Positions 1,383 to 18,012 of a stretch of DNA of 18,062 nt are shown here, piece after piece. Position 1 is the first letter of the stretch. The number at the start of each line of letters is the position of its first letter. Both the position numbers and the translations under genes were made by a program. The notes beneath the pieces were generated by a model. That model saw nothing but the letters and a program-made list of their open reading frames with translations. It searched no databases and was not told the DNA's origin. Source of the stretch: a virus; UHGV virus genome UHGV-0041835. One strand, 5' to 3'.

Positions 1383-1808
1383 AAGCTGTGTGACGAAGTA
1401 ACCACTCTTAACAGCATAACCAATTTTTTACGTACGTAAACTACTAAATGATATTTGTGAGAATGCCACCGAGTGTTCAAAACACCACCACAAATGCATA
1501 AGAAAACTTCAACAAATAACCAGTTAATAATTTCCGATGTTATTTTTAGTTTGTTTAAATTAAGCTAAAGAATTATAGAGCACTTATAAATAAGTGCCAT
1601 TAATATAAATTAGCTAATAGATTTATTTTTGTTCAGACAAGAGCCATGAATAGGATTAGATAGAAAAGGTTCAGATAAAAATAGAGATCTACTTCACAAA
1701 TTAAATGAGAAACTAAAACTTACATCTTGAAATAATCACATTGATTAGATGAATATTTATCGCGCAGTGACATCATTTTTTAATAATAGTTCAAAAAAAG
1801 GGCGTACA

Positions 1809-2891
1809 ATGAAAAAATTAACAGTGGCAATTTCTGCTGTAGCTGCATCAGTACTGATGGCGATGTCTGCTCAGGCAGCTGAAATTTATAATAAAGACAG
1901 TAACAAGCTGGATCTATACGGGAAAGTTAATGCCAAGCACTACTTCTCCTCTAATGATGCAGATGATGGTGATACTACTTATGCCCGTCTTGGCTTCAAA
2001 GGTGAAACCCAAATCAACGATCAACTGACTGGTTTCGGTCAGTGGGAATATGAATTCAAAGGCAACCGTGCTGAATCTCAAGGTTCTTCCAAAGACAAAA
2101 CCCGTCTTGCATTTGCAGGCCTGAAATTTGGTGATTACGGCTCAATCGATTACGGCCGTAACTACGGTGTAGCATACGACATCGGTGCGTGGACTGACGT
2201 TCTGCCAGAATTCGGTGGTGATACCTGGACCCAAACAGATGTGTTCATGACTGGTCGCACTACTGGTGTTGCAACTTATCGTAACAACGACTTCTTTGGT
2301 CTGGTCGATGGCCTGAACTTTGCTGCTCAGTATCAGGGTAAAAATGACCGCACTGACGTAACTGAAGCTAACGGTGATGGTTTCGGTTTCTCCACTACTT
2401 ATGAGTATGAAGGATTCGGCGTGGGTGCAACCTATGCTAAATCAGATCGCACTGACGGTCAGGTCGCCTATGGTAAGAGCAAATTCAATGCCTCCGGCAA
2501 AAATGCGGAAGTATGGGCTGCAGGCCTGAAATATGATGCGAACAATATCTATCTGGCTACCACATATTCTGAAACTCAGAATATGACCGTTTTTGGTAAT
2601 AACCATATTGCAAACAAAGCACAAAACTTTGAAGCAGTAGCACAATATCAGTTTGACTTCGGTCTGCGTCCATCTGTTGCTTACCTTCAGTCAAAAGGTA
2701 AAGACCTTGGTGTTCATGGTGACCGAGACTTAGTCAAGTATGTCGATGTCGGTGCTACTTACTACTTTAATAAAAACATGTCCACTTTTGTTGATTACAA
2801 AATCAACTTAATTGACGATAGTAAGTTTACCAAAACAGCTGGTATTGATACCGACGACATCGTCGCTGTAGGTCTGGTTTATCAGTTCTAA
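1809..2891 (+). CDS. nmpC: Outer-membrane general porin (OmpC/OmpF family; prophage NmpC/Lc-like moron)
   Basis: Signal peptide [29 protein letters not shown], a beta-barrel porin sequence and the C-terminal VGLVYQF motif ending in Phe. The real start is the ATG at 1809 with AAGGG upstream; the track ORF begins at an upstream in-frame ATG at 1749. Orientation is opposite to the flanking late genes. Confidence 0.9.
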
Positions 2892-3079: not shown

Positions 3080-3463
3080 TCAATTAGAATTATTAGCAAC
3101 GATATCCATATCTAACCGGATATCTAATGCCATTAACATCCCTTCAATTATGCCCTCAGCCTTCTGTAACCTTTTCCCGATATAACCATCCGAGCAGCAA
3201 TGCTTACTTGCCAGTGACATGAATGTCATACCACATACATAATAATCTACTAATAAATCGTGTAAATCGCTGTTGTTCTTTTTCAGACGGGCCATGCACC
3301 CGCAAATGATCATCGCGTCATCGTCACAACATTGCGGGCGAGATTTTACTTTTGAAGGAATTAATCCCTTAAAACCGGCGGCAATGGACGACCAGGTCAC
3401 ATCTTCATGATTATTAGCCGCCCACGCACCCCAACGCTCAAGAACCATCTGAATATCACGCAT
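3080..3463 (-). CDS. Q: Late-gene antitermination protein Q (21/DLP12 QuuD-like)
   Basis: 127 aa from [22 protein letters not shown]..., with Cys-rich zinc-binding motifs ([23 protein letters not shown]). ATG at 3463 has GGAG 8 nt upstream; the track ORF starts at an upstream TTG. Sits upstream of the late region. Confidence 0.85.
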
Positions 3464-3548
3464 CAACTTACTCCACAAAAATCAGACCAGAACGCCAATT
3501 ACAAGCAAAAATCAACAAAACAGTATTAGTTGATTGTTATCTCTGACT

Positions 3549-3686
3549 TCATACTCCTGTTCCTGTCAGGGTTTTGGCGTAATTCTTCAGTATTCGGTAA
3601 TCGGTCAAAACAGAACCGAGGAAACGATATAAGCGCAGACGCCCCCAGCGGTGGCGAAGAAGTTCTGCCATATTAAACTCAAACAT
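3549..3686 (-). CDS. ylcG: Small conserved lambdoid protein, YlcG-like (45 aa)
   Basis: Not in the ORF track (under 60 aa). Hand translation gives [45 protein letters not shown]. The ATG overlaps the rusA stop (TGATG), and the position between rusA and Q matches DLP12. Confidence 0.55.
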   Translation of the reverse strand: MFEFNMAELLRHRWGRLRLYRFLGSVLTDYRILKNYAKTLTGTGV

Positions 3687-4048
3687 CATTCATTCCCCAT
3701 TTCGGTGATGGTCAGTTCCAGCCTCCCACCTTTGGTAACAGGCATCTTCACAACGCGGTAATCAACGACCTGAGCATCATCCAGCCAGAAACCTGCTTTA
3801 GTGAGTGCGTCAAAAGCGGCTTTTTGCAGATTATCCAGGTCACGGCGACGGCGATCCGGCATGTGGCACTCAATGCGGATTTTCACAGGCATAGCCAGGC
3901 CGATATCCAGCATTGCGTTTTTAATGATTCGGGCGACGTTATCGCGGTATGCCTGCCCCTCTGCGCTGACGTGCGTGCGCCCGCGATTATGGCGGTAATA
4001 GCGATTATTGCTCGGAGGCCAGGGTAATGTGATGCTGTAGGTATTCAC
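3686..4048 (-). CDS. rusA: Holliday-junction resolvase RusA
   Basis: 120 aa, [37 protein letters not shown]..., matching prophage RusA as recalled. The start codon is GTG. Confidence 0.9.
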
Positions 4049-5809: not shown

Positions 5810-6100
5810 TCATCTTTTAACTCCATATACCGCCAATATCCGTTTCATCGTGGCACTCTGGCGACACTCCTTAAAAATCAGGTTCGTGCTCATCTTTCCT
5901 TCCCGTTCTTCCTTGGTAGCAAACCGGTAATACACCGTTCGCCAGACCTTACCTTCGATAACCAGAAGACCTGCCCGTGCCATTTTAGCCGCGGCCTGAT
6001 TTATGCTGGTTACTGTTGCGCCTGTTAGCGCGGCAACGTCCGGCGCACAGAAGCTATTATGCGTCCCCAGGTAATGAATAATTGCCTCTTTGCCCGTCAT
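5810..6100 (-). CDS. ren: Ren protein
   Basis: 96 aa, MTGKEAIIHYLGTHNSFCAPDVAALTGATVTSINQAAAKMARAGLLVIEGKVWRTVYY..., matching lambda Ren. Start overlaps the P stop. Confidence 0.85.
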   Translation of the reverse strand: MTGKEAIIHYLGTHNSFCAPDVAALTGATVTSINQAAAKMARAGLLVIEGKVWRTVYYRFATKEEREGKMSTNLIFKECRQSATMKRILAVYGVKR

Positions 6101-6798
6101 ACACTTGCTCCTTTCAGTCCTAACTTAGCTTTAATTTCTGCGATCTTCGCCAGCGCCTGAACACGATTTAGAGGTCTGCCGCCCATGACAGGAAGTTGTT
6201 TTACTGGTTCAGGTATCGTCTCACCACGGTTAATTCGCGCTGTCATACAGGTCAGTTCATCGGCAGCCTTGCGTCGTAATTCCGCGTCAGTCAGCGCATT
6301 GGCCCGCATGTTCTGGTACAGGTTGGTAACCAGCCAGTAGTGCGCGTTCGATTTCCACGGATAAGACTCTGCATCCGGATACAGGCCTCGCTTCCGGCAA
6401 TACTCGTAAACCATATCAACCAGCTCGCTGACGTTTGGCAGTCCGGCGATAACGGATGCTTCTTCCCGGCACCATGCAACAAACTGCCCGGGTGATGGCA
6501 GAAATGGTCGATTCTGCCGACGGGCTACGCGCATTCCTGCGTTAACCTGTTCCATTGTGGTGATCCCGTTTTCCCGGAAAGCCAGAACCCACTGGCGGCG
6601 GATTTCGTTCAGTTCGTTCTGGTCACGGTTAGCCAGACTCGCCGGGAAAGTTGCCAGTAACTGGCTGAACACACCGTTGATGATCTGCGCTACCTGCTGT
6701 ACCTGCGGCTTTTCGTCGTACTGTTCCGGCATGTTGTTGGCGATCCGACGCATCTGCTCACGGTCAAAATTAACCATCTGTGCGGCGATGTTTTTCAT
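6097..6798 (-). CDS. P: Replication protein P (DnaB helicase loader)
   Basis: 233 aa, MKNIAAQMVNFDREQMRRIANNMPEQYDEKPQVQQVAQIINGVF..., near-identical to lambda P as recalled. Confidence 0.9.
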   Translation of the reverse strand: MKNIAAQMVNFDREQMRRIANNMPEQYDEKPQVQQVAQIINGVFSQLLATFPASLANRDQNELNEIRRQWVLAFRENGITTMEQVNAGMRVARRQNRPFLPSPGQFVAWCREEASVIAGLPNVSELVDMVYEYCRKRGLYPDAESYPWKSNAHYWLVTNLYQNMRANALTDAELRRKAADELTCMTARINRGETIPEPVKQLPVMGGRPLNRVQALAKIAEIKAKLGLKGASV

Positions 6799-7694
6799 AA
6801 ATCCACCCCGTAAATCCAGTCAGTGTTTGTCAGGTCGAGTTTTGGTTTGCAGGCTGTCACACCTGCCTGTTGCTTGTTACGGTTGATTTCGAGCTGGGTC
6901 CACTTGTCGCGGAGTTTGGCCGGGCTCAGCACGTTACCGGACCAGAAGTTGTCCTGGCATGCCCAGCGGAACAGTACACACATGTCGCGATGGTTACGTC
7001 CGTCACGTTCACGCATCAGGCGGATATCGTTAGCCCACCCTGCAAAATTCGGTTTTCTGGCTGATGGCGCGATGGTCTTCACCATGTCAAACATCCATTC
7101 TGCGGCGGTCAGGTCTTCTGCTGTCCCCCACTTGCTGCCGCTCTGAATTGCAGCATCCGGTTTCACCACAGAAAGGTCGTTTTCTGGCTGGTCAGAGGAT
7201 TCGCCAGAATTCTCTGACGAATAATCTTTTCTTTTTTCTTTTGTAATAGTGTCTTTTGTGTCCCCCTGTTTTGAGGGATAGCAATCCCCCAATTTGAGGG
7301 ATGTTTTATCCCTCGTTTTAGGGGATTTTCCCTCGTTTTGAGGGATACACCATTCTGAGATGTTTTTATTTGGTCCAAACATGCCGCCTTGCTGCTTGAT
7401 AATATTCATTCTGACGAGTTCTAACTTGGCTTCATTGCACCGTTTGACGGGTAACTTTGTAATCTCGCTAAGTTGAGAATCGGTGATTCTGTCCATTGGT
7501 TTATTCCATCCATAGGTTTTACGCAGAATGGCAAGCAGCACTTTAAACTGTCGCTTGGTCAGATCTGCGCCTGAATAAGCCTCAAGCAGCATATTTGATA
7601 GTCTGGCGTAACCATCATCGAGATCTGCCACATTACGCTCCTGTTTGGCAAAGTTACCTCTGCAGAAGTTGAGTATTTTTGCTGTATTTGTCAT
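6795..7694 (-). CDS. O: Replication initiator protein O
   Basis: 299 aa, MTNTAKILNF...TDWIYGVDL, near-identical to lambda O as recalled. Contains the origin iterons internally. Confidence 0.9.
   Translation of the reverse strand: MTNTAKILNFCRGNFAKQERNVADLDDGYARLSNMLLEAYSGADLTKRQFKVLLAILRKTYGWNKPMDRITDSQLSEITKLPVKRCNEAKLELVRMNIIKQQGGMFGPNKNISEWCIPQNEGKSPKTRDKTSLKLGDCYPSKQGDTKDTITKEKRKDYSSENSGESSDQPENDLSVVKPDAAIQSGSKWGTAEDLTAAEWMFDMVKTIAPSARKPNFAGWANDIRLMRERDGRNHRDMCVLFRWACQDNFWSGNVLSPAKLRDKWTQLEINRNKQQAGVTACKPKLDLTNTDWIYGVDL
7201..7346. repeat. ori-lambda-type replication origin: four iterons (about 7261-7346) plus adjacent AT-rich region (about 7201-7260), inside the O gene
   Basis: Four roughly 18-bp repeats, each an inverted repeat of form (T)CCC(T/C)(C/A)...TTTGAGGG(A): tccccctgttttgaggga, atcccccaatttgaggga, atccctcgttttagggga, tccctcgttttgaggga. 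Flanked by the T-rich tract tctttt cttttttcttttgt. Confidence 0.8.
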
Positions 7695-7726
7695 AATGAC
7701 TCCTGTGGATTGATCCAGTAATGACC

Positions 7727-8023
7727 TCAGAATTCCATCTGGATTTGTTCAGAACGCTCGGTTGCCGCCGGGCGTTTTTTATTGGTGAGTCCATCAAGCG
7801 CATACTTAAAAGCCCTGCTAATCGGACTGATGTCTGATGCCATTCCGAAAGCACACAAGACCGAAGCAATAAATCTCCAGTCCGTTCTGCTTATCTTCGA
7901 TTCATGACAGCCAATCATCTTTGCCAGACCGCGCTGGGTAATAGCTGACAGATTGATAAGTAAATCTGTTTCTGCGCGATCAACGTCACGCTGTGATAGT
8001 TTGCTGTAACTTGTTCTTTCCAT
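7727..8023 (-). CDS. cII: CII transcriptional activator (C-terminus lambda-like, N-terminus divergent)
   Basis: 98 aa. The C-terminal TNKKRPAATERSEQIQMEF is identical to lambda CII as recalled; the N-terminal two-thirds differ. Position between cro and O. Confidence 0.8.
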   Translation of the reverse strand: MERTSYSKLSQRDVDRAETDLLINLSAITQRGLAKMIGCHESKISRTDWRFIASVLCAFGMASDISPISRAFKYALDGLTNKKRPAATERSEQIQMEF

Positions 8024-8108
8024 TTCTTAAGATTTCCAATAGTGAATAGTTAGTTGAAAGGTATGCATGGAAACGCATATGGCCTTAGTTGGTCAGATAT
8101 CTTGGAAC

Positions 8109-8164: not shown

Positions 8165-8380
8165 TTAAGCGGCTTTGTGTTCCGGCGGGAACACGTCATC
8201 AAGACTGACTTTTGCGCCTAACTTGTTTAGGCACGCAACAAGAGCACGGCATGTTTTAAGGTCTGGGAAGCGACGACCAGATTCCCAATGTCCGATAGCT
8301 CCCTGTGTGCATCCAACTGCCTTAGCAAGTGTTGTTTGAGAGATATTCAGTGACTCTCGATATTTTCGTAGGTTGCTCAT
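8165..8380 (-). CDS. cro: Cro-like HTH repressor
   Basis: 71 aa, MSNLRKYRESLNISQTTLAKAVGCTQGAIGHWESGRRFPDLKTCRALVACLNKLGAKVSLDDVFPPEHKAA, with an HTH (QTTLAKAVGCTQGAIGHW). ATG at 8380 has GGAGGG upstream; the longer track ORF runs through the operator region. Divergent from cI. Confidence 0.75.
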   Translation of the reverse strand: MSNLRKYRESLNISQTTLAKAVGCTQGAIGHWESGRRFPDLKTCRALVACLNKLGAKVSLDDVFPPEHKAA

Positions 8381-8491
8381 ATGCCCTCCATAGTAAACAC
8401 GAATAAAAAAATACAATATGTACTTTGCGAATACAAGTAAAAATACACATTGTGCATGGATGGTTCCAGTACAGAGCGTAATAATAAGGAC
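8381..8491. promoter_or_regulatory. Immunity-region divergent promoter/operator region (OR with PR and PRM)
   Basis: AT-rich intergenic space between divergent cro and cI. Contains TACA...TGTA-type inverted-repeat motifs (for example tacaatatgtact at 8412-8424) that recur near the PL candidate. A possible -10 TAATAA ends about 8 nt before the cI ATG, suggesting a leaderless PRM-like transcript. Confidence 0.6.
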
Positions 8492-9151
8492 ATGAAAATG
8501 AAATGGTATGAACTGGCTAGATCCAGAATGAAAGAGCTCGGCATAACTCAAGAGAAGTTAGCCGAAGAGCTAGGTATGACGCAGGGTGGGATTGGACACT
8601 GGTTGCGCGGATCTCGTCATCCATCTCTTAGTGATATTGGTGTGGTGTTTAAATACCTTGGTATTGATAACATATCATTCAACCACGACGGGACATTTTC
8701 ACCTGTTGGCGAATACTCATCGGCCCCAGTTAAAAAACAATATGAGTACCCTGTTTTTTCTCATGTTCAGGCTGGGATGTTCTCTCCAGAACTCAGAACC
8801 TTTACCAAAGGCGATGCGGAGAGATTGGTAAGCACAACCAAAAAAGCCAGTGACTCTGCATTCTGGCTTGAGGTTGAAGGTAACTCAATGACCGCACCAA
8901 CAGGTTCCAAACCCAGCTTTCCTGACGGGATGTTAATTCTGGTTGACCCTGAGCAAGCTGTTGAGCCCGGCGATTTCTGCATAGCCAGACTTGGTGGTGA
9001 TGAATTTACCTTCAAGAAACTGATCAGGGATAGCGGTCAGGTGTTTCTACAGCCACTAAACCCACAATACCCAATGATCCCATGCAATGAGAGTTGTTCC
9101 GTTGTGGGGAAAGTTATCGCCAGCCAATGGCCTGAAGAGACGTTTGGGTGA
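8492..9151 (+). CDS. cI: CI repressor: divergent N-terminal HTH domain fused to a lambda-type C-terminal S24 autopeptidase domain
   Basis: C-terminal half is near-identical to lambda CI as recalled, including the Ala-Gly cleavage site (VQAGMF) and the Ser/Lys dyad (GNSMTAP, FKKLIRD). The N-terminal HTH ([18 protein letters not shown]) differs. Start is uncertain among ATG 8450, 8492 and 8498. Confidence 0.9.
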
Positions 9152-9190
9152 TGAAACCACTTTTATCTACAATTTACAGGGCGGTAAACA

Positions 9191-9748
9191 TTGGCAAAAA
9201 TAGATGATTATCAGCCAAGCCAAGTAGAAGTTGATAAAGTACTTTATTGTAAAAAAATAGTTAACTTTTCTGGCGTTAAATGGAAACAGAAACCAAGTCG
9301 CTCTGATATGTGGCTACAAGCCCATATCATCCCCTTGGATGAGGATTGTATACCTATACAAGGGCTAAAGTTTGAACTGAAATGGAAACCAGATCAGGAT
9401 TCAGAACCTGATGACCCGATTTCTTACCCTAAAATAAATATTATTGCTTTCTATCATAACAAGAGGGTTTTCGCGGTAGATACCTATCACTTTGACAAAC
9501 ACACGAATAGTTACAAGGTCGATCATCCGAAGTACCAAGATATCATTTACGGTGCTCACTACCATGTATACTATGAAGAAGCTGGATACTATAGTGATAG
9601 AATAGCGTTTCCAATCGAAGATGACATAAACCCAGATGACCTGGTAGGGTATTGGAATTACTTCTGTAAACATCTGAACATAACTTACTCTGGGAGAATA
9701 CCTTTACCGCTTGAAGATGAGTCGGGGCAAATGGGGTTTGGAATATGA
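9191..9748 (+). CDS. Hypothetical protein A (185 aa), first gene of an uncharacterised cassette downstream of cI
   Basis: Open frame beginning at TTG 9191; the only in-frame ATG is 39 codons in. No recognised motif. Acidic and Tyr/His-rich soluble protein with no predicted TM segment. Visibly more AT-rich than flanking phage genes. Its stop overlaps the start of gene B. Confidence 0.6.
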   Translation: MAKIDDYQPSQVEVDKVLYCKKIVNFSGVKWKQKPSRSDMWLQAHIIPLDEDCIPIQGLKFELKWKPDQDSEPDDPISYPKINIIAFYHNKRVFAVDTYHFDKHTNSYKVDHPKYQDIIYGAHYHVYYEEAGYYSDRIAFPIEDDINPDDLVGYWNYFCKHLNITYSGRIPLPLEDESGQMGFGI

Positions 9749-10497
9749 TGTGCTCAACAGTGATCTCACAACTAGGTTTCGAATGCCATCCAATAGGCAA
9801 GACCTTGAGAATTATCAGTCCATTCACTTACTGTGATGATGGAGAGCATGTCGGTGCCTTTATCCGTGAAGTCAATGGTAGGTATTTAGTTAGTGACAGA
9901 TGCGATGCCTTAATGAATATGGAGGCAAGAGGGATCTCGCTTACCAAAAAACGACTTGATGAGATACGACAATTACTGCTTAAAGAAGGCGCAGAACTCA
10001 ATGCTCGAGGAGAAATCATTGCTTGGGCAACAGAAAAGGATGTCGGTGCGATTACATCGAACATAATTAGAGCTGGTATACTCGCATCAACTTTGTCGTT
10101 AGACTGGTATCAGCCAGTTCAAGCTGAAAAGTTTGAAAGTATGGTTATTGATTATCTATATCACACAGAGCTTAGAGACGCACTTTCTCTTCGTGAAAAC
10201 GTATATGGCTTGAGTGGACATCAAATTACCGTCCCTGTAACAATAAAAACCGACATACCTAAATACGTTTTTACATCAAGCGTGAAACACGGAGGAAGCT
10301 GGAATAGTGCTTACTCATTGCTTGGGAAACTAATTGATCTTAAAGCTTCAAGTGAGGAGTATAACAACAGATTTGTTGTTATAGACAGCGAAGCAATTGG
10401 TGATCAAATGCAACAACTCTCCTTACTCTTCCATGAATCAAGCCAAGTTCTACCATTCTCCAAAAGAGAGACTTGGGTTAAGAGACTTGCAGCATAA
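9745..10497 (+). CDS. Hypothetical protein B (250 aa), second gene of the uncharacterised cassette
   Basis: ATG at 9745 or 9748 overlaps the stop of gene A (ATGATG), implying translational coupling. No recognisable family from the sequence. Followed 5 nt later by an intrinsic terminator. Confidence 0.65.
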   Translation: MMCSTVISQLGFECHPIGKTLRIISPFTYCDDGEHVGAFIREVNGRYLVSDRCDALMNMEARGISLTKKRLDEIRQLLLKEGAELNARGEIIAWATEKDVGAITSNIIRAGILASTLSLDWYQPVQAEKFESMVIDYLYHTELRDALSLRENVYGLSGHQITVPVTIKTDIPKYVFTSSVKHGGSWNSAYSLLGKLIDLKASSEEYNNRFVVIDSEAIGDQMQQLSLLFHESSQVLPFSKRETWVKRLAA

Positions 10498-10502
10498 TAC
10501 AA

Positions 10503-10531
10503 CCCGGCCTCAGCGCCGGGGTTTCTTTTCC
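10503..10531 (+). terminator. Intrinsic terminator ending the cI-cassette operon (tImm-like)
   Basis: Stem CCCGGC/GCCGGG with loop CTCAGC, followed by GTTTCTTTTCC. Confidence 0.6.
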
Positions 10532-10543
10532 TCACGTTCGCCC

Positions 10544-10553
10544 NNNNNNNNNN
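10544..10553. other. Run of 10 N: assembly gap or contig junction
   Basis: Literal NNNNNNNNNN. The roughly 35 bp on each side are near-identical copies (cctcagcgccggggtttcttttcctcacgttcgccc versus cctcagcgccgggttttctttgcctcacgttcgccc). Confidence 0.95.
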
Positions 10554-10762
10554 CCTCAGCGCCGGGTTTTCTTTGCCTCACGTTCGCCCACCTAAAAACA
10601 CATAACCAATTATATTTATTGAAAAATAAATAGATGCAACCCACTAAACCACGCAATTCTGATCTCTCCTTACATCGCCGAGGCAATACATCCACGCTAA
10701 AAAACAACACTATTAAATACAAAGCGTTATAAAAAACCACGCCAACTTACAACAAATTGTAT

Positions 10763-10791
10763 TGATCTTGTAAAGTACATATCGTACTATT
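10763..10791 (+). promoter_or_regulatory. PL candidate promoter with overlapping OL operator motif
   Basis: TTGATC (10763-10768), a 17-nt spacer, then TACTAT (10786-10791). The spacer contains AGTACATATCGTACT (10774-10788), an inverted repeat that matches the OR-region motif AGTACATATTGTA. Confidence 0.5.
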
Positions 10792-10836
10792 TAACCGTCA
10801 GCAGGACGCTGGAAGCCAAATGGAACAGACTGGCAG

Positions 10837-10881: not shown

Positions 10882-10979
10882 GATCACCCAACCACATAAG
10901 CTGTGGGATGCAATGCCGAAGCAACCGTCTCAGGAGGAGCTTCGAGATTGCATCGCCAAAGTTTATTCGGGAGGAATCC

Positions 10980-11252
10980 ATGTCCAGAAAAACAGAATTT
11001 AAAGGCACCGCAGCTTCTCGCCGTAGAGCTCGTCGCGCAAATCTGCAAAGTCAGGAGGCGATCAGCTCCGACAAGCTACACAGGCCAACCCCTTCACGAG
11101 TGGTCTTGCAATGCAAGCTCAAACCAGCAATGAGAGCAGAAGTGATAACTCTGACAACGTTGACCAGAAAATATGAAGGTTCAACTTGTCTTCCGAACGT
11201 AGCTCTTTACGCGGCAGGCTACCGGAAATCAAAACAACTGACGGCGAGATGA
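10980..11252 (+). CDS. N: Antitermination protein N (Arg-rich motif type, H-19B/933W-like)
   Basis: 90 aa from MSRKTEFKGTAASRRRARRANLQ... (N-terminal arginine-rich motif), with C-terminal ...LPNVALYAAGYRKSKQLTAR resembling the N proteins of P22-like and Stx phages as recalled. GGAGG lies 5-9 nt upstream of the ATG; the track ORF is extended upstream. Confidence 0.75.
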   Translation: MSRKTEFKGTAASRRRARRANLQSQEAISSDKLHRPTPSRVVLQCKLKPAMRAEVITLTTLTRKYEGSTCLPNVALYAAGYRKSKQLTAR

Positions 11253-11268
11253 TAAATTCATTTGCTAA

Positions 11269-11850
11269 TTACTTGTTTTTGCCATGCTTATCCTGAGCGA
11301 TAAGTTCATCCATAAGGCTGTCTGCCTTCCCGGCAAACCTAATGTAGCACTCATGTCTATAGCTTTCAGGGATAACGAAACGGTCGGTATCAGGATATCC
11401 AACAGCAGGAGGCCTTCGAACGAGGAGTCCTTTTTTGAGCAATGAAATTGATTCATGAGCGCCCTTTTCCGTTTGTAGCTGGTTATTAGCGGCTACAGCG
11501 AATGCCAAATACGCTCTTTCTCCAAGAGTTAACGAATCAAACAAATCTTGCACATATTTTTCTTCTTTAGATTTGCGCTTCTGAGCAGCGAATACCTCAA
11601 TTCTTTCAGTCACAGCGTGATAAGCGGAATTAACAACGCCGTTAAGCACATAGCTAACGCAAAACAACAGGATGTAATACATCCAGTAATGAGGAAGGAT
11701 TTCTGGATTATGCAGGTTTATCCATTCTTTTACGCTTACCGGCATAACAATAATCAATATGATCAGGATGATTAGCATATGAATCAACTGTTTAAGTGTC
11801 ATTCCTTGCAGGAAAAAATGCATTAGTTCCTGCCACCATGAGTTGTTCAT
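11269..11850 (-). CDS. sieB: Superinfection exclusion protein B (SieB)
   Basis: 193 aa from MNNSWWQELMHFFLQGMTLKQLIHMLIILIILIIVMPV..., with two hydrophobic TM segments and a C-terminal ...IRFAGKADSLMDELIAQDKHGKNK. On the strand opposite N, as expected for sieB. Confidence 0.8.
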   Translation of the reverse strand: MNNSWWQELMHFFLQGMTLKQLIHMLIILIILIIVMPVSVKEWINLHNPEILPHYWMYYILLFCVSYVLNGVVNSAYHAVTERIEVFAAQKRKSKEEKYVQDLFDSLTLGERAYLAFAVAANNQLQTEKGAHESISLLKKGLLVRRPPAVGYPDTDRFVIPESYRHECYIRFAGKADSLMDELIAQDKHGKNK

Positions 11851-12446: not shown

Positions 12447-12815
12447 ATGTCAAACATCAAAAAATACATCATTGATTACGACTGGAAAGCATCAATAGAA
12501 ATTGAAATTGACCATGACGTAATGACAGAGGAAAAACTTCACCAGATTAATAATTTCTGGTCAGACTCTGAATACCGACTCAATAAACACGGCTCTGTAT
12601 TAAATGCTGTATTAATCATGCTGGCGCAACATGCTCTGCTTATAGCAATTTCAAGCGACTTAAATGCATATGGTGTTGTGTGTGAGTTCGACTGGAATGA
12701 TGGAAATGGTCAGGAAGGATGGCCTCCAATGGATGGTAGTGAAGGAATAAGAATTACCGATATCGATACATCAGGAATATTTGATTCAGATGATATGACT
12801 ATCAAGGCCGCCTGA
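12447..12815 (+). CDS. ea10: Ea10-like early protein
   Basis: 122 aa, MSNIKKYIIDYDWKASIEIEIDHDVMTEEKLHQINNFWSD..., recalled as lambda Ea10. Position between ral and cIII. Confidence 0.7.
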   Translation: MSNIKKYIIDYDWKASIEIEIDHDVMTEEKLHQINNFWSDSEYRLNKHGSVLNAVLIMLAQHALLIAISSDLNAYGVVCEFDWNDGNGQEGWPPMDGSEGIRITDIDTSGIFDSDDMTIKAA

Positions 12816-13239: not shown

Positions 13240-13536
13240 ATGAACGCTTATTACATTCAGGATCGTCTTGAGGCTCAGAGCTGGGCGCGTCACTACCAGC
13301 AGATCGCCCGTGAAGAGAAAGAGGCAGAACTGGCAGACGACATGGAAAAAGGCCTGCCCCAGCACCTGTTTGAATCGCTATGCATCGATCATTTACAACG
13401 CCACGGGGCCAGCAAAAAAGCCATTACCCGTGCGTTTGATGACGATGTTGAGTTTCAGGAGCGCATGGCAGAACACATCCGGTACATAGTTGAAACCATT
13501 GCTCACCATCAGGCTGATATTGATTCAGAGGTATAA
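13240..13536 (+). CDS. gam: Gam (RecBCD inhibitor), short form GamS
   Basis: 98 aa, [60 protein letters not shown]..., matching lambda GamS. AGGAG lies 12 nt upstream. Confidence 0.9.
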
Positions 13537-13541
13537 AACGG

Positions 13542-14327
13542 ATGAGTACAGCACTCGCAACGCTGGCAGGGAAGCTGGCTGAACGTGTCGGCATGGATTC
13601 TGTCGACCCACAGGAACTGATCACCACTCTTCGCCAGACGGCATTTAAAGGTGATGCCAGCGATGCGCAGTTCATCGCATTGTTGATCGTCGCCAACCAG
13701 TACGGCCTTAATCCGTGGACGAAAGAAATTTACGCCTTCCCTGATAAGCAGAACGGCATTGTTCCGGTGGTGGGCGTTGATGGCTGGTCCCGCATCATCA
13801 ATGAAAACCAGCAGTTTGATGGTATGGACTTTGAGCAGGACAATGAATCATGTACATGCCGGATTTACCGCAAAGACCGCAATCATCCGATCTGCGTTAC
13901 CGAGTGGATGGATGAATGCCGCCGCGAACCATTCAAAACCCGCGAAGGCAGAGAAATCACGGGGCCGTGGCAGTCGCATCCCAAACGGATGTTACGGCAT
14001 AAAGCCATGATTCAGTGTGCCCGTCTGGCCTTCGGATTTGCTGGTATCTATGACAAGGATGAAGCCGAGCGCATTGTCGAAAATACCGCATACACTGCAG
14101 AACGTCAGCCGGAACGCGACATCACTCCGGTTAACGATGAAACCATGCAGGAGATTAACACTCTGCTGATTGCCCTGGACAAAACATGGGATGACGACTT
14201 ATTGCCGCTCTGTTCCCAGATATTTCGCCGCGACATTCGCGCATCGTCAGAACTGACACAGGCCGAAGCAGTGAAAGCTCTTGGATTCCTGAAACAGAAA
14301 GCCACTGAGCAGAAGGTGGCAGCATGA
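13542..14327 (+). CDS. bet: Bet (Red-beta single-strand annealing protein)
   Basis: 261 aa, [59 protein letters not shown]..., matching lambda Bet. Confidence 0.95.
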
Positions 14328-15004
14328 CACCGGACATTATCCTGCAGCGTACCGGGATCGACGTGAGAGCTGTCGAACAGGGGGATGATGCATGGCACAA
14401 ATTACGGCTCGGCGTCATCACCGCTTCAGAAGTTCACAACGTGATAGCAAAGCCCCGCTCAGGAAAGAAGTGGCCTGACATGAAAATGTCCTACTTCCAC
14501 ACCCTGCTGGCTGAGGTTTGCACCGGTGTGGCTCCGGAAGTTAATGCTAAGGCGCTGGCGTGGGGAAAACAGTACGAGAACGACGCCAGAACCCTGTTTG
14601 AATTCACTTCCGGCGTGAATGTTACTGAATCCCCGATCATCTATCGCGACGAAAGTATGCGCACCGCCTGCTCTCCCGATGGTTTATGCAGTGACGGCAA
14701 TGGCCTTGAGCTGAAATGCCCGTTTACCTCCCGGGATTTCATGAAGTTCCGGCTCGGTGGTTTCGAGGCCATAAAGTCGGCTTACATGGCCCAGGTGCAG
14801 TACAGCATGTGGGTGACACGAAAAGATGCCTGGTACTTTGCCAACTATGACCCACGAATGAAGCGTGAAGGCCTGCATTATGTCGTGGTTGAGCGGGATG
14901 AAAAGTACATGGCGAGTTTTGACGAGATGGTGCCGGAGTTCATCGAAAAAATGGACGAAGCACTGGCTGAAATTGGTTTTGTATTTGGAGAGCAATGGCG
15001 ATGA
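14324..15004 (+). CDS. exo: Exo (lambda exonuclease, Red-alpha)
   Basis: 226 aa, [65 protein letters not shown]..., matching lambda Exo. Start overlaps the bet stop. Confidence 0.95.
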
Positions 15005-16643: not shown

Positions 16644-16880
16644 ATGTCTCGACTAATCACTTTACAGGACTGGGCTAAAGAAGAATTTGGGGACTTAGCA
16701 CCAAGTGAGCGAGTTCTGAAAAAATACGCGCAAGGGAAAATGATGGCCCCACCCGCTATAAAAGTTGGTCGCTACTGGATGATTGACCGAAATTCCCGTT
16801 TTGTAGGAACGCTTGCAGAACCGCAACTCCCAATAAACGCAAACCCAAAACTCCAAAGGATAATCGCTGATGGCTGCTAG
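16644..16880 (+). CDS. xis: Excisionase (Xis)-like protein
   Basis: 78 aa, MSRLITLQDWAKEEFGDLAPSERVLKKYAQGKMMAPPAIKVGRYWMIDRNSRFVG. The pattern LTLQ(D/E)W...PP(A/V)(I/V)K.GR resembles lambda Xis. AGGAGG lies 6 nt upstream, and the 3' end overlaps the int start. Confidence 0.7.
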   Translation: MSRLITLQDWAKEEFGDLAPSERVLKKYAQGKMMAPPAIKVGRYWMIDRNSRFVGTLAEPQLPINANPKLQRIIADGC

Positions 16881-18012
16881 ACCCCGATCTCACAAAATCT
16901 CTATACCCAATTTATATTGCAAATTAGATAAGCGAACCGGAAAGGTATATTGGCAATACAAACATCCACTATCCGGTCGTTTTCATAGCTTAGGAACTGA
17001 TGAGAATGAAGCAAAACAAGTTGCTACTGAAGCAAATACCATTATTGCTGAACAACGTACCAGACAAATATTAAGCGTCAATGAGCGTCTGGAAAGAATG
17101 AAAGGCAGGCGCTCAGACATTACGGTGACAGAATGGCTTGATAAATATATTTCTATCCAAGAGGACAGGCTGCAACATAATGAACTAAGACCCAACTCCT
17201 ATCGGCAAAAAGGCAAACCCATTCGTCTTTTCCGTGAGCATTGTGGAATGCAACACCTCAAGGATATTACCGCACTTGATATTGCCGAAATAATTGATGC
17301 TGTAAAGGCTGAAGGTCATAACAGGATGGCGCAAGTCGTGAGAATGGTGTTGATCGACGTCTTCAAAGAAGCACAACACGCAGGACATGTTCCGCCAGGA
17401 TTTAACCCAGCGCAGGCAACAAAACAACCGCGAAATCGAGTAAACCGCCAAAGATTGTCACTGCCCGAATGGCAGGCAATATTTGACAGCGTAAGCAGAC
17501 GGCAGCCCTATTTAAAATGCGGCATGCTACTTGCTCTTGTTACTGGACAACGTTTAGGCGATATCTGCAATTTGAAATTCTCTGATATATGGGACGACAT
17601 GTTGCACATTACTCAGGAAAAAACCGGTTCAAAACTTGCTATTCCGCTTAACCTGAAATGCGATGCTCTGAATATTACCCTTCGTGAAGTTATATCTCAG
17701 TGCAGGGATGCTGTTGTTAGTAAATATCTGGTCCATTACCGTCACACTACCTCTCAAGCAAACAGAGGAGACCAGGTTTCTGCGAATACTCTGACAACGG
17801 CTTTTAAAAAGGCCCGGGAAAAATGTGGCATAAAATGGGAGCAAGGAACTGCGCCCACATTTCATGAGCAGCGATCTCTGTCAGAACGGTTATATCGGGA
17901 ACAGGGTCTGGATACGCAAAAGTTGTTAGGCCATAAATCCAGAAAAATGACCGACCGATACAATGATGATCGTGGTAAAGACTGGATTATCGTAGATATC
18001 AAAACAGCATAG
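16870..18012 (+). CDS. int: Tyrosine integrase (lambda Int family)
   Basis: 380 aa. The C-terminal catalytic region has R...HxxR...Y motifs (TFHEQRSLSERLY...LLGHKSRKMTDRYNDDRGKDW) aligning with lambda Int as recalled; the N-terminus is arm-binding-like. Confidence 0.9.
   Translation: MAARPRSHKISIPNLYCKLDKRTGKVYWQYKHPLSGRFHSLGTDENEAKQVATEANTIIAEQRTRQILSVNERLERMKGRRSDITVTEWLDKYISIQEDRLQHNELRPNSYRQKGKPIRLFREHCGMQHLKDITALDIAEIIDAVKAEGHNRMAQVVRMVLIDVFKEAQHAGHVPPGFNPAQATKQPRNRVNRQRLSLPEWQAIFDSVSRRQPYLKCGMLLALVTGQRLGDICNLKFSDIWDDMLHITQEKTGSKLAIPLNLKCDALNITLREVISQCRDAVVSKYLVHYRHTTSQANRGDQVSANTLTTAFKKAREKCGIKWEQGTAPTFHEQRSLSERLYREQGLDTQKLLGHKSRKMTDRYNDDRGKDWIIVDIKTA

Follow-up and report, generated by a model that had tools for sequence, protein, structure and literature searches.

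A conserved two-gene cassette in the rexAB position of a lambdoid prophage is a plausible anti-phage pair related to the candidate system PDC-M24

Two small genes, here called A and B, lie directly downstream of the cI repressor gene in the virus genome UHGV-0041835, and their sequences, distribution and relatives were analysed computationally. The window (the whole stretch of 18,062 nucleotides that was analysed) is a lambdoid prophage that reads in the reverse of lambda: the minus strand carries O, cII and cro, and the plus strand then has cI, A, B, a terminator, an oL-like operator and N. The cI-type repressor gene (8456-9151, plus strand; HTH_3, 1.9e-10; Peptidase_S24, 1.1e-28) opens the presumed lysogenic operon. 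Its start was taken from the RefSeq annotation of an identical gene, and an internal methionine at 8495 is also possible. A spacer of 39 nt (9152-9190), carrying a GGGCGG Shine-Dalgarno-like element 6 nt before the start codon, separates cI from gene A (9191-9748, plus strand, 185 aa, TTG start). The TGA stop of A (9746-9748) overlaps the ATG (9745-9747) of gene B (9745-10497, plus strand, 250 aa), and the 4-nt overlap (ATGA) lies in the sequence ATGATG. Behind B stands an intrinsic terminator (10503-10530, plus strand), in which a hairpin (10503-10520) with a 6-bp all-GC stem and a 6-nt loop is followed by a T-rich tail (-13 kcal/mol, z = -2.98). By analogy with lambda t_imm, this terminator would close the cI-A-B unit. 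Coordinates, overlap and terminator agreed with the original prediction, which had described two translationally coupled genes after cI, on the same strand and before a clean terminator.

The transcription signals of the cassette were then considered. Terminator and folding scans of the 39-nt cI-A spacer revealed neither a terminator nor any significant structure, so that read-through from the cI promoter is plausible. No internal promoter signal was found between cI and A or within the cassette, where five promoter-like matches occurred against 7.0 expected from shuffled sequence. A sequence at 8406-8426, in the cro-cI intergenic region, forms one arm of a 21-nt inverted repeat (86% complementary) whose partner arm, an inverted copy, lies upstream of N at 10772-10792. 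These two sequences are probably oR and oL. Since the oR-like and oL-like arms flank cI-A-B, the unit lies inside the immunity region, and the N antiterminator gene (10980-11252, plus strand) opens the early-left operon downstream of the cassette.

In lambda, cI is followed by rexA and rexB, then by t_imm, oL and N, and RexB is a polytopic membrane protein. The reversed lambda order of the window, with cI-A-B followed by the terminator, the oL-like operator and N, therefore puts the cassette in the rexAB position, and its assignment to that slot, between the two operator-like arms and upstream of N, was confirmed. The resemblance to RexA/RexB extends to the number of genes, their strand, their place in the immunity region and, presumably, their expression in lysogens. 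However, it does not extend to the proteins. No RexA or RexB family was among the matches of either protein at E<=1 in Pfam, PHROGs, NCBIfam and PADLOC, as had been claimed before. Neither A nor B contained a transmembrane segment (maximum 19-residue Kyte-Doolittle mean, 0.45 for A and 1.19 for B), which also agreed with the earlier reading, and the AF2 models of both were globular. Thus the pair has no membrane partner, and its folds differ from those of the Rex proteins, B being a YbjN-like plus PD-(D/E)xK-like protein and A having an unmatched fold.

The start codon of A and the reality of both genes were also checked. An in-frame stop lies 6 nt 5' of the TTG, the N-terminus (MAK.DDY.PSQ.EVD) is kept from codon 1, and the homologues begin at the same codon, all of which upheld the TTG start proposed in the original prediction. 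Among 13 lineages the start codon of A was GTG in nine, ATG in three and TTG only in the present E. coli phage cassette, so that 10 of the 13 used a non-ATG codon. Several public annotations (E. coli, Serratia and Enterobacter clusters) list gene A as 142 or 146 aa. These versions likely reflect gene callers choosing an internal ATG, the likely reason being that the conserved start is TTG or GTG. Comparisons with Izhakiella, Yersinia, Providencia and Xenorhabdus indicated strong purifying selection on both genes (pN 0.14-0.24 versus a saturated pS of 0.72-0.89). A gene-calling artefact was ruled out by this conservation and selection, and the pair is real, well defined and conserved. The cassette had been described as richer in AT than the cI, N and red genes, and the GC comparison, when run, showed just this: GC content was 0.382 in A and 0.406 in B versus 0.466 in cI, 0.496 in N and 0.52 in bet/exo, and GC at third codon positions (GC3) was also lower (0.36 and 0.34 versus 0.44-0.61 in the flanking genes). 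Low GC and GC3 relative to the flanks are consistent with horizontal acquisition.

Protein B could be assigned to known families. It matched Pfam DUF1828 (PF08861) over residues 26-110 with 33.5 bits (cut-off 22) and phrog_1960 at 1.6e-106, and an HHpred match of DUF1829 (PF08862) to residues 155-241 is given at 98.8% in Table S5 of DefensePredictor (Science 2026). The statement in the original prediction that neither protein belonged to a recognisable family was thus overturned: B combines DUF1828 with a probable DUF1829 domain, and A appears to be a distant DUF6978 relative. The N-terminal DUF1828 domain has a fold like that of YbjN and of type III secretion system (T3SS) chaperones. The C-terminal domain, probably DUF1829, is PD-(D/E)xK restriction-endonuclease-like, with the alpha-beta-beta-beta-alpha-beta core fold present, and a PDB sequence search with B gave no match. 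Pfam puts DUF1829 in the PDDEXK clan, and in this B is comparable to PD-(D/E)xK nucleases such as the type II restriction enzymes PspGI, NgoMIV and Cfr10I and the nuclease domain of Can2. Nevertheless, the B family does not conserve the canonical D...(D/E)xK catalytic residues: strand 2 opens with G158-H159, and K173 and the strand 3 residues after it differ among distant members. In contrast to those enzymes, B thus lacks the conserved acidic and lysine catalytic residues, and it has neither a DNA-recognition domain nor a partner methyltransferase. The residues conserved in the C-terminal domain over the broad family are S157, G158, W186, D198 and R209, while H159 is nearly invariant. The DUF1829 label is also carried by DS-6B (DUF3037 plus DUF1829) of the validated HipAD / DS-6 system, which is likewise two-protein and prophage-associated and in which DS-6B is the proposed non-catalytic, DNA-binding partner of the effector. 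The HipA kinase that serves as effector in that system has no counterpart in A-B. Homology of B to HipD / DS-6B through this label was rejected, as hhalign gave a probability of 0.1 and no detectable homology, and the DUF1829 label of DS-6B is itself weak (HHpred 0.78).

Protein A matched phrog_2017 (6e-67), and its other similarities were fainter. It aligned with Pfam DUF6978 (PF22398) by its C-terminal part only, at 22 bits and under the gathering cut-off of 29.6, and 13 of 27 members of the A family gave comparably weak DUF6978 matches. The hidden Markov model (HMM) of PDC-M24A was also matched in part (E 4.8e-4, 18 bits), by residues 104-163 in the C-terminal third. Three PDC-M24A models were matched by seven, three and three of the 27 A-family members, which matched no other PADLOC family. 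Judged from these alignments, A may be a distant relative of DUF6978 and PDC-M24A. The family is small, comprising 20 representatives (50% identity) at E<=1e-3 among 1.84 billion cluster representatives in a full HMMER scan, and a profile word search also gave only a small unannotated family. Within it, K22, W31, R92, D97, N106, G121, H123, H125, F158 and P173 are invariant and H104 is nearly so, K22 and W31 being kept even in relatives at 22% identity. R92, D97, H104, N106, G121, H123 and H125 fall on consecutive strands, and an HxH on a strand would turn the two histidines towards the same side, an arrangement known from many metal sites. The predicted fold is a confident small alpha/beta one with no match in the PDB. 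A PDB sequence match of A to the designed six-blade Kelch protein SAKe6AC-LB (4e-6 by sequence, 2e-11 by profile) was dismissed as repeat inflation: no single stretch of it was above threshold, and the score was therefore taken as a sum over near-identical blades.

These residue patterns bear on which of the two proteins would be the effector. The main alternative retains a role in defence but exchanges the parts, with B as an effector nuclease that has an unorthodox active site (S157-G158-H159, D198, R209) gated by the DUF1828 sensor. A would then inhibit B, confer immunity to it or act as its specificity partner, much as in an operon that places the antitoxin first. The invariance of S157, G158, D198 and R209 and the near invariance of H159 across the broad B family would suit it, and so would the position of the small protein, which comes first with an overlapping stop and start in the order typical of antitoxin and toxin. 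However, conservation fails at the canonical D...(D/E)xK residues, and distant members differ at K173 and in beta-3; moreover, the invariant His/Asp/Asn cluster in A suits an enzyme rather than an inhibitor, and the conserved weak start of A would yield less inhibitor than toxin. We consider this exchange of roles unlikely.

The distribution of the cassette was investigated at several depths. It is at least 99.7% identical in the Escherichia phages ev207, ev017, PhiR57_1 and PhiR63_2 and in a phage converting to Stx1a. Among 5426 complete E. coli genomes, 241 carried it, in single copy and always on the chromosome, including CFT073, Nissle 1917 (in the prophage beside icd), ATCC 11775 and clone D i14. 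Homologues of B at 47-84% identity were found in Salmonella, Yersinia, Erwinia, Serratia, Klebsiella, Providencia, Photorhabdus, Aeromonas and Thorsellia. Seven genome loci from other genera were usable, and at every one of them A lay directly upstream of B in the layout rep(-), cII(-), cro(-), cI(+), A(+), B(+), with an N-like gene next in some, and a repressor with HTH and S24 domains was the upstream gene in each. Such a repressor lay upstream on the same strand in 11 lineages. The six distant metagenomic homologues of A (22-36% identity) were all followed by a gene of about 250 aa of the DUF1828 family, usually with the same 4-nt overlap; Pfam made the DUF1828 call in five of the six, and the sixth was called by alignment at 29% identity. 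One of these six lineages also lay downstream of a Peptidase_S24 gene. Overall, A and B were linked in all lineages that were looked at, down to 22% identity for A and 27-31% for B.

The pair was also found in other settings. In the D3-like Pseudomonas phage VB_PaD_phPA-G (PP083311.1; locus L020) the order was CI-like repressor, one extra gene, A homologue and B. The A homologue (3486-4004; hmmsearch, 9e-23) is unannotated, lies in an apparent gap of the record and overlaps the start of the B homologue. Other copies of the pair stand beside a resolvase or in an element with a D5 primase, and at two loci (L011, L017) no S24 repressor could be recognised near the pair. At loci with a B of 73-77% identity, the identity of cI was no more than 34-57%, so the pair either travels from one immunity region to another or changes much more slowly than these regions. 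A gene of 113 aa is present between cI and A in Izhakiella (L002, 5044-5385) and at two Providencia loci (L004, 5053-5394; L005, 5052-5393). The Izhakiella insert is DUF3024 (3e-27), and the Providencia copies were grouped with it by their common MAFNDIE... N-terminus only. These extra genes suggest that the slot accumulates cargo. A 518-nt contig of Actinomadura rugatobispora (L009) encodes parts of A (64% identity to the E. coli protein) and B (82%), and it is almost certainly enterobacterial contamination.

The persistent neighbourhood of a repressor could mean something other than shared expression. The pair might be an accessory of lysogeny or induction, or serve another function of lysogenic conversion unrelated to exclusion (repressor cleavage, SOS response or host physiology). 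Placement right after HTH-S24 repressors is kept even at 22% identity, which could indicate functional coupling, and the YbjN-like fold is known in regulators (8q8o, AmyR). Set against this are the loci L011 and L017, where no S24 repressor was recognisable beside the pair, the autocleavage domain that the repressors themselves possess, and the flagging of the pair by two independent defence predictors. In addition, the slot holds exclusion genes in lambda (rexAB) and in several other temperate phages, as with BstA, whose gene adjoins a repressor gene. Such an accessory role is very unlikely in our view. BstA, the abortive-infection protein of the Salmonella BTP1 prophage, is itself comparable to A-B as a prophage defence gene that is expressed in lysogens, an expression that is presumed for A-B. 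In contrast to A-B, it consists of one large protein and comes with an anti-BstA DNA element, it has no likeness to A or B in sequence or architecture, and the PADLOC scan gave no BstA match.

Addiction could also explain why two small genes with coupled translation occur on mobile elements (prophages, the D5-primase element, the resolvase neighbour) and in tight linkage to a repressor gene. A module of the toxin-antitoxin kind would stabilise the prophage by killing any cell in which the immunity region has been lost or silenced, with no direct anti-phage activity. However, scans of Pfam, NCBIfam and PADLOC found no HTH, ribbon-helix-helix (RHH) or other antitoxin-type DNA-binding domain and no toxin family in A or B, which sets the pair apart from type II toxin-antitoxin systems, and relatives of both proteins have been catalogued from within BREX, DISARM or restriction-modification (RM) loci. 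We regard pure addiction as highly improbable; as many toxin-antitoxin modules are defence systems, it also overlaps with a role in defence.

Defence catalogues were then consulted. Among 5027 PADLOC models, A and B matched only PDC-M24A and PDC-M24B, the two cognate components of the candidate system PDC-M24. B aligned with the PDC-M24B model over its full length (E 4.7e-10; residues 2-249 on profile positions 4-254 of 256), and all 13 members of the B family tested matched this model, the best at 2.7e-13. Relatives in PDC-M24 were catalogued for sitting within BREX, DISARM or RM loci (Payne et al. 2024, preprint). Our pair resembles PDC-M24 in its two adjacent genes on the same strand and in the same order, in the full-length match of B, and in that the weak matches of A fell on PDC-M24A models only. 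It differs in that the A-B branch is small and resides in repressor operons of prophages, the definition of PDC-M24 being based on genes within BREX, DISARM or RM loci, and in that A aligns by its C-terminal third only and scores under the Pfam DUF6978 cut-off. On sequence grounds, the pair fits best into the candidate family PDC-M24, as a divergent branch that is carried by prophages. Independently, WP_001062368.1 and WP_000968518.1, which are identical to the pair, are listed as "Predicted novel defense gene" in Tables S5 and S10 of DefensePredictor, with mean log-odds of 5.64 for B and 4.9-5.4 for A (Science 2026). In the paper texts searched, DUF1828, DUF6978 and PDC-M24 were not mentioned in the context of defence.

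Three independent computational lines point to anti-phage defence: the rex-slot position with its deep repressor linkage, PADLOC and DefensePredictor. The original prediction had proposed a lysogen-expressed anti-phage moron. This proposal gained support from PDC-M24, DefensePredictor and the repressor linkage. The cassette is no fresh discovery, and the defence idea itself is not new, since two public prediction sets already include these very proteins. A defence pair is plausible and would not surprise a specialist; what would be new is any functional or mechanistic knowledge of the pair, together with the unmatched fold of A. We hypothesize that A-B is a two-protein anti-phage moron, acting in superinfection exclusion or abortive infection, in a lambdoid repressor operon and from a divergent PDC-M24 branch; judged by the sequence evidence, this full description is slightly favoured, and for a defence role as such the balance is somewhat on the positive side.

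Several points weigh against this hypothesis. The link of A to PDC-M24A and DUF6978 is weak and partial, at 18-22 bits. The 145 PDC systems, the candidate PDC-M24 among them, were explicitly described as untested (Payne et al. 2024, preprint), and neither accession of the pair is listed where DefensePredictor tabulates its screened units, its plaque assays and its validated systems. The literature gave no experiment on the pair concerning defence, toxicity or co-transcription with cI, in a search that did not cover Brenes and Laub (2025), presumably the source of phages PhiR57_1 and PhiR63_2. The co-transcription of A-B with cI is deduced from the layout. Finally, if B had to neutralise A, it would be unusual for A, as the upstream gene, to have the weak start codon.

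Under the defence hypothesis, a tentative mechanism can be drawn. In the lysogen the pair would be transcribed with cI from the maintenance promoter, as the layout suggests, with transcription ending at 10503-10530. The ATGA overlap would couple translation, the conserved weak start codon would keep A scarce, and A and B might form an inactive complex. In this complex the DUF1828 domain of B, with its fold of YbjN and secretion chaperones, would hold A or sense a phage product, while the DUF1829 domain, a nuclease fold devoid of the canonical D...(D/E)xK residues, would bind nucleic acid instead of cutting it. A would be the catalytic partner, as its residues D97, H104, N106, H123 and H125 resemble a metal-binding active site. 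On sensing a superinfecting phage, A might be released or activated and block the phage at the cost of the cell or of phage nucleic acid. The specific division of labour, with B as sensor and scaffold and A as a scarce metal-dependent effector, is the arrangement that we favour, although it is itself less likely than not.

Prophage 3 of E. coli Nissle 1917 has the same immunity region. This prophage was implicated in resistance to lambda and Stx phages, and a contribution of "other genes of prophage 3" was left open (Bury et al. 2018); its connection with the pair is circumstantial. It would be a bold and rather improbable extension that A is an unseen metal-dependent effector fold with a degenerate nuclease/chaperone-fold partner, that the two represent a new class of abortive infection, and that they are the missing lambda/Stx resistance factor of Nissle prophage 3. 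The primers with which Bury et al. (2018) cloned the "phage repressor pr" (EcN_1294) map to 7699-7720 and 8051-8069 of the window with one to two mismatches. The interval brackets cII (7727-8023, minus strand) and not cI, and the published lambda/Stx plating defect may accordingly be an effect of CII over-expression.

If the pair excludes phages, it would provide the first functional data for the family of DUF1828/DUF1829 and DUF6978 (PDC-M24) and for a fold without a solved relative. It would also be a third type of occupant, other than Rex, of the exclusion slot in cI operons. The pair is present in about 4% of complete E. coli genomes, among them those of a probiotic (Nissle 1917), a uropathogen (CFT073) and the type strain, and in an Stx1a-converting phage, and it could therefore bear on host range in phage therapy and on the spread of Stx phages.

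The remaining genes of the window complete the prophage. On the minus strand lie the genes for lysozyme (508-1005), Q (3080-3478), the P-like and O-like replication proteins (6097-7694) and Cro (8165-8380). The early-left region on the plus strand contains a DUF2528 gene (12447-12815), followed by gam, bet and exo (13240-15004) and the integrase gene (16870-18012). A SieB superinfection exclusion gene (sieB, 11269-11850, minus strand) adjoins N, so the prophage has at least one further exclusion gene near the cassette. A full-length porin gene of Gram-negative type (1749-2891, plus strand; Porin_1, 2e-151) lies on the strand opposite to its lysozyme and Q neighbours, and the stretch upstream of it (1401-1800) has 27.5% GC. 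It is a probable second moron of the prophage. Kinship between the two 380-aa open reading frames of the window was rejected, as one is this porin and the other is the integrase. At 10508-10589, just behind the terminator stem, a 36-nt near-duplicate stands on either side of a run of ten N (10544-10553). Neither phage ev207 nor E. coli Nissle has it, and it was therefore taken as an artefact of scaffold joining and not as biology. Just 5' of the N start, an inverted repeat (10907-10954) with 16-nt arms, 88% complementary, and a 16-nt loop may be an N-leader processing or nut-region hairpin.

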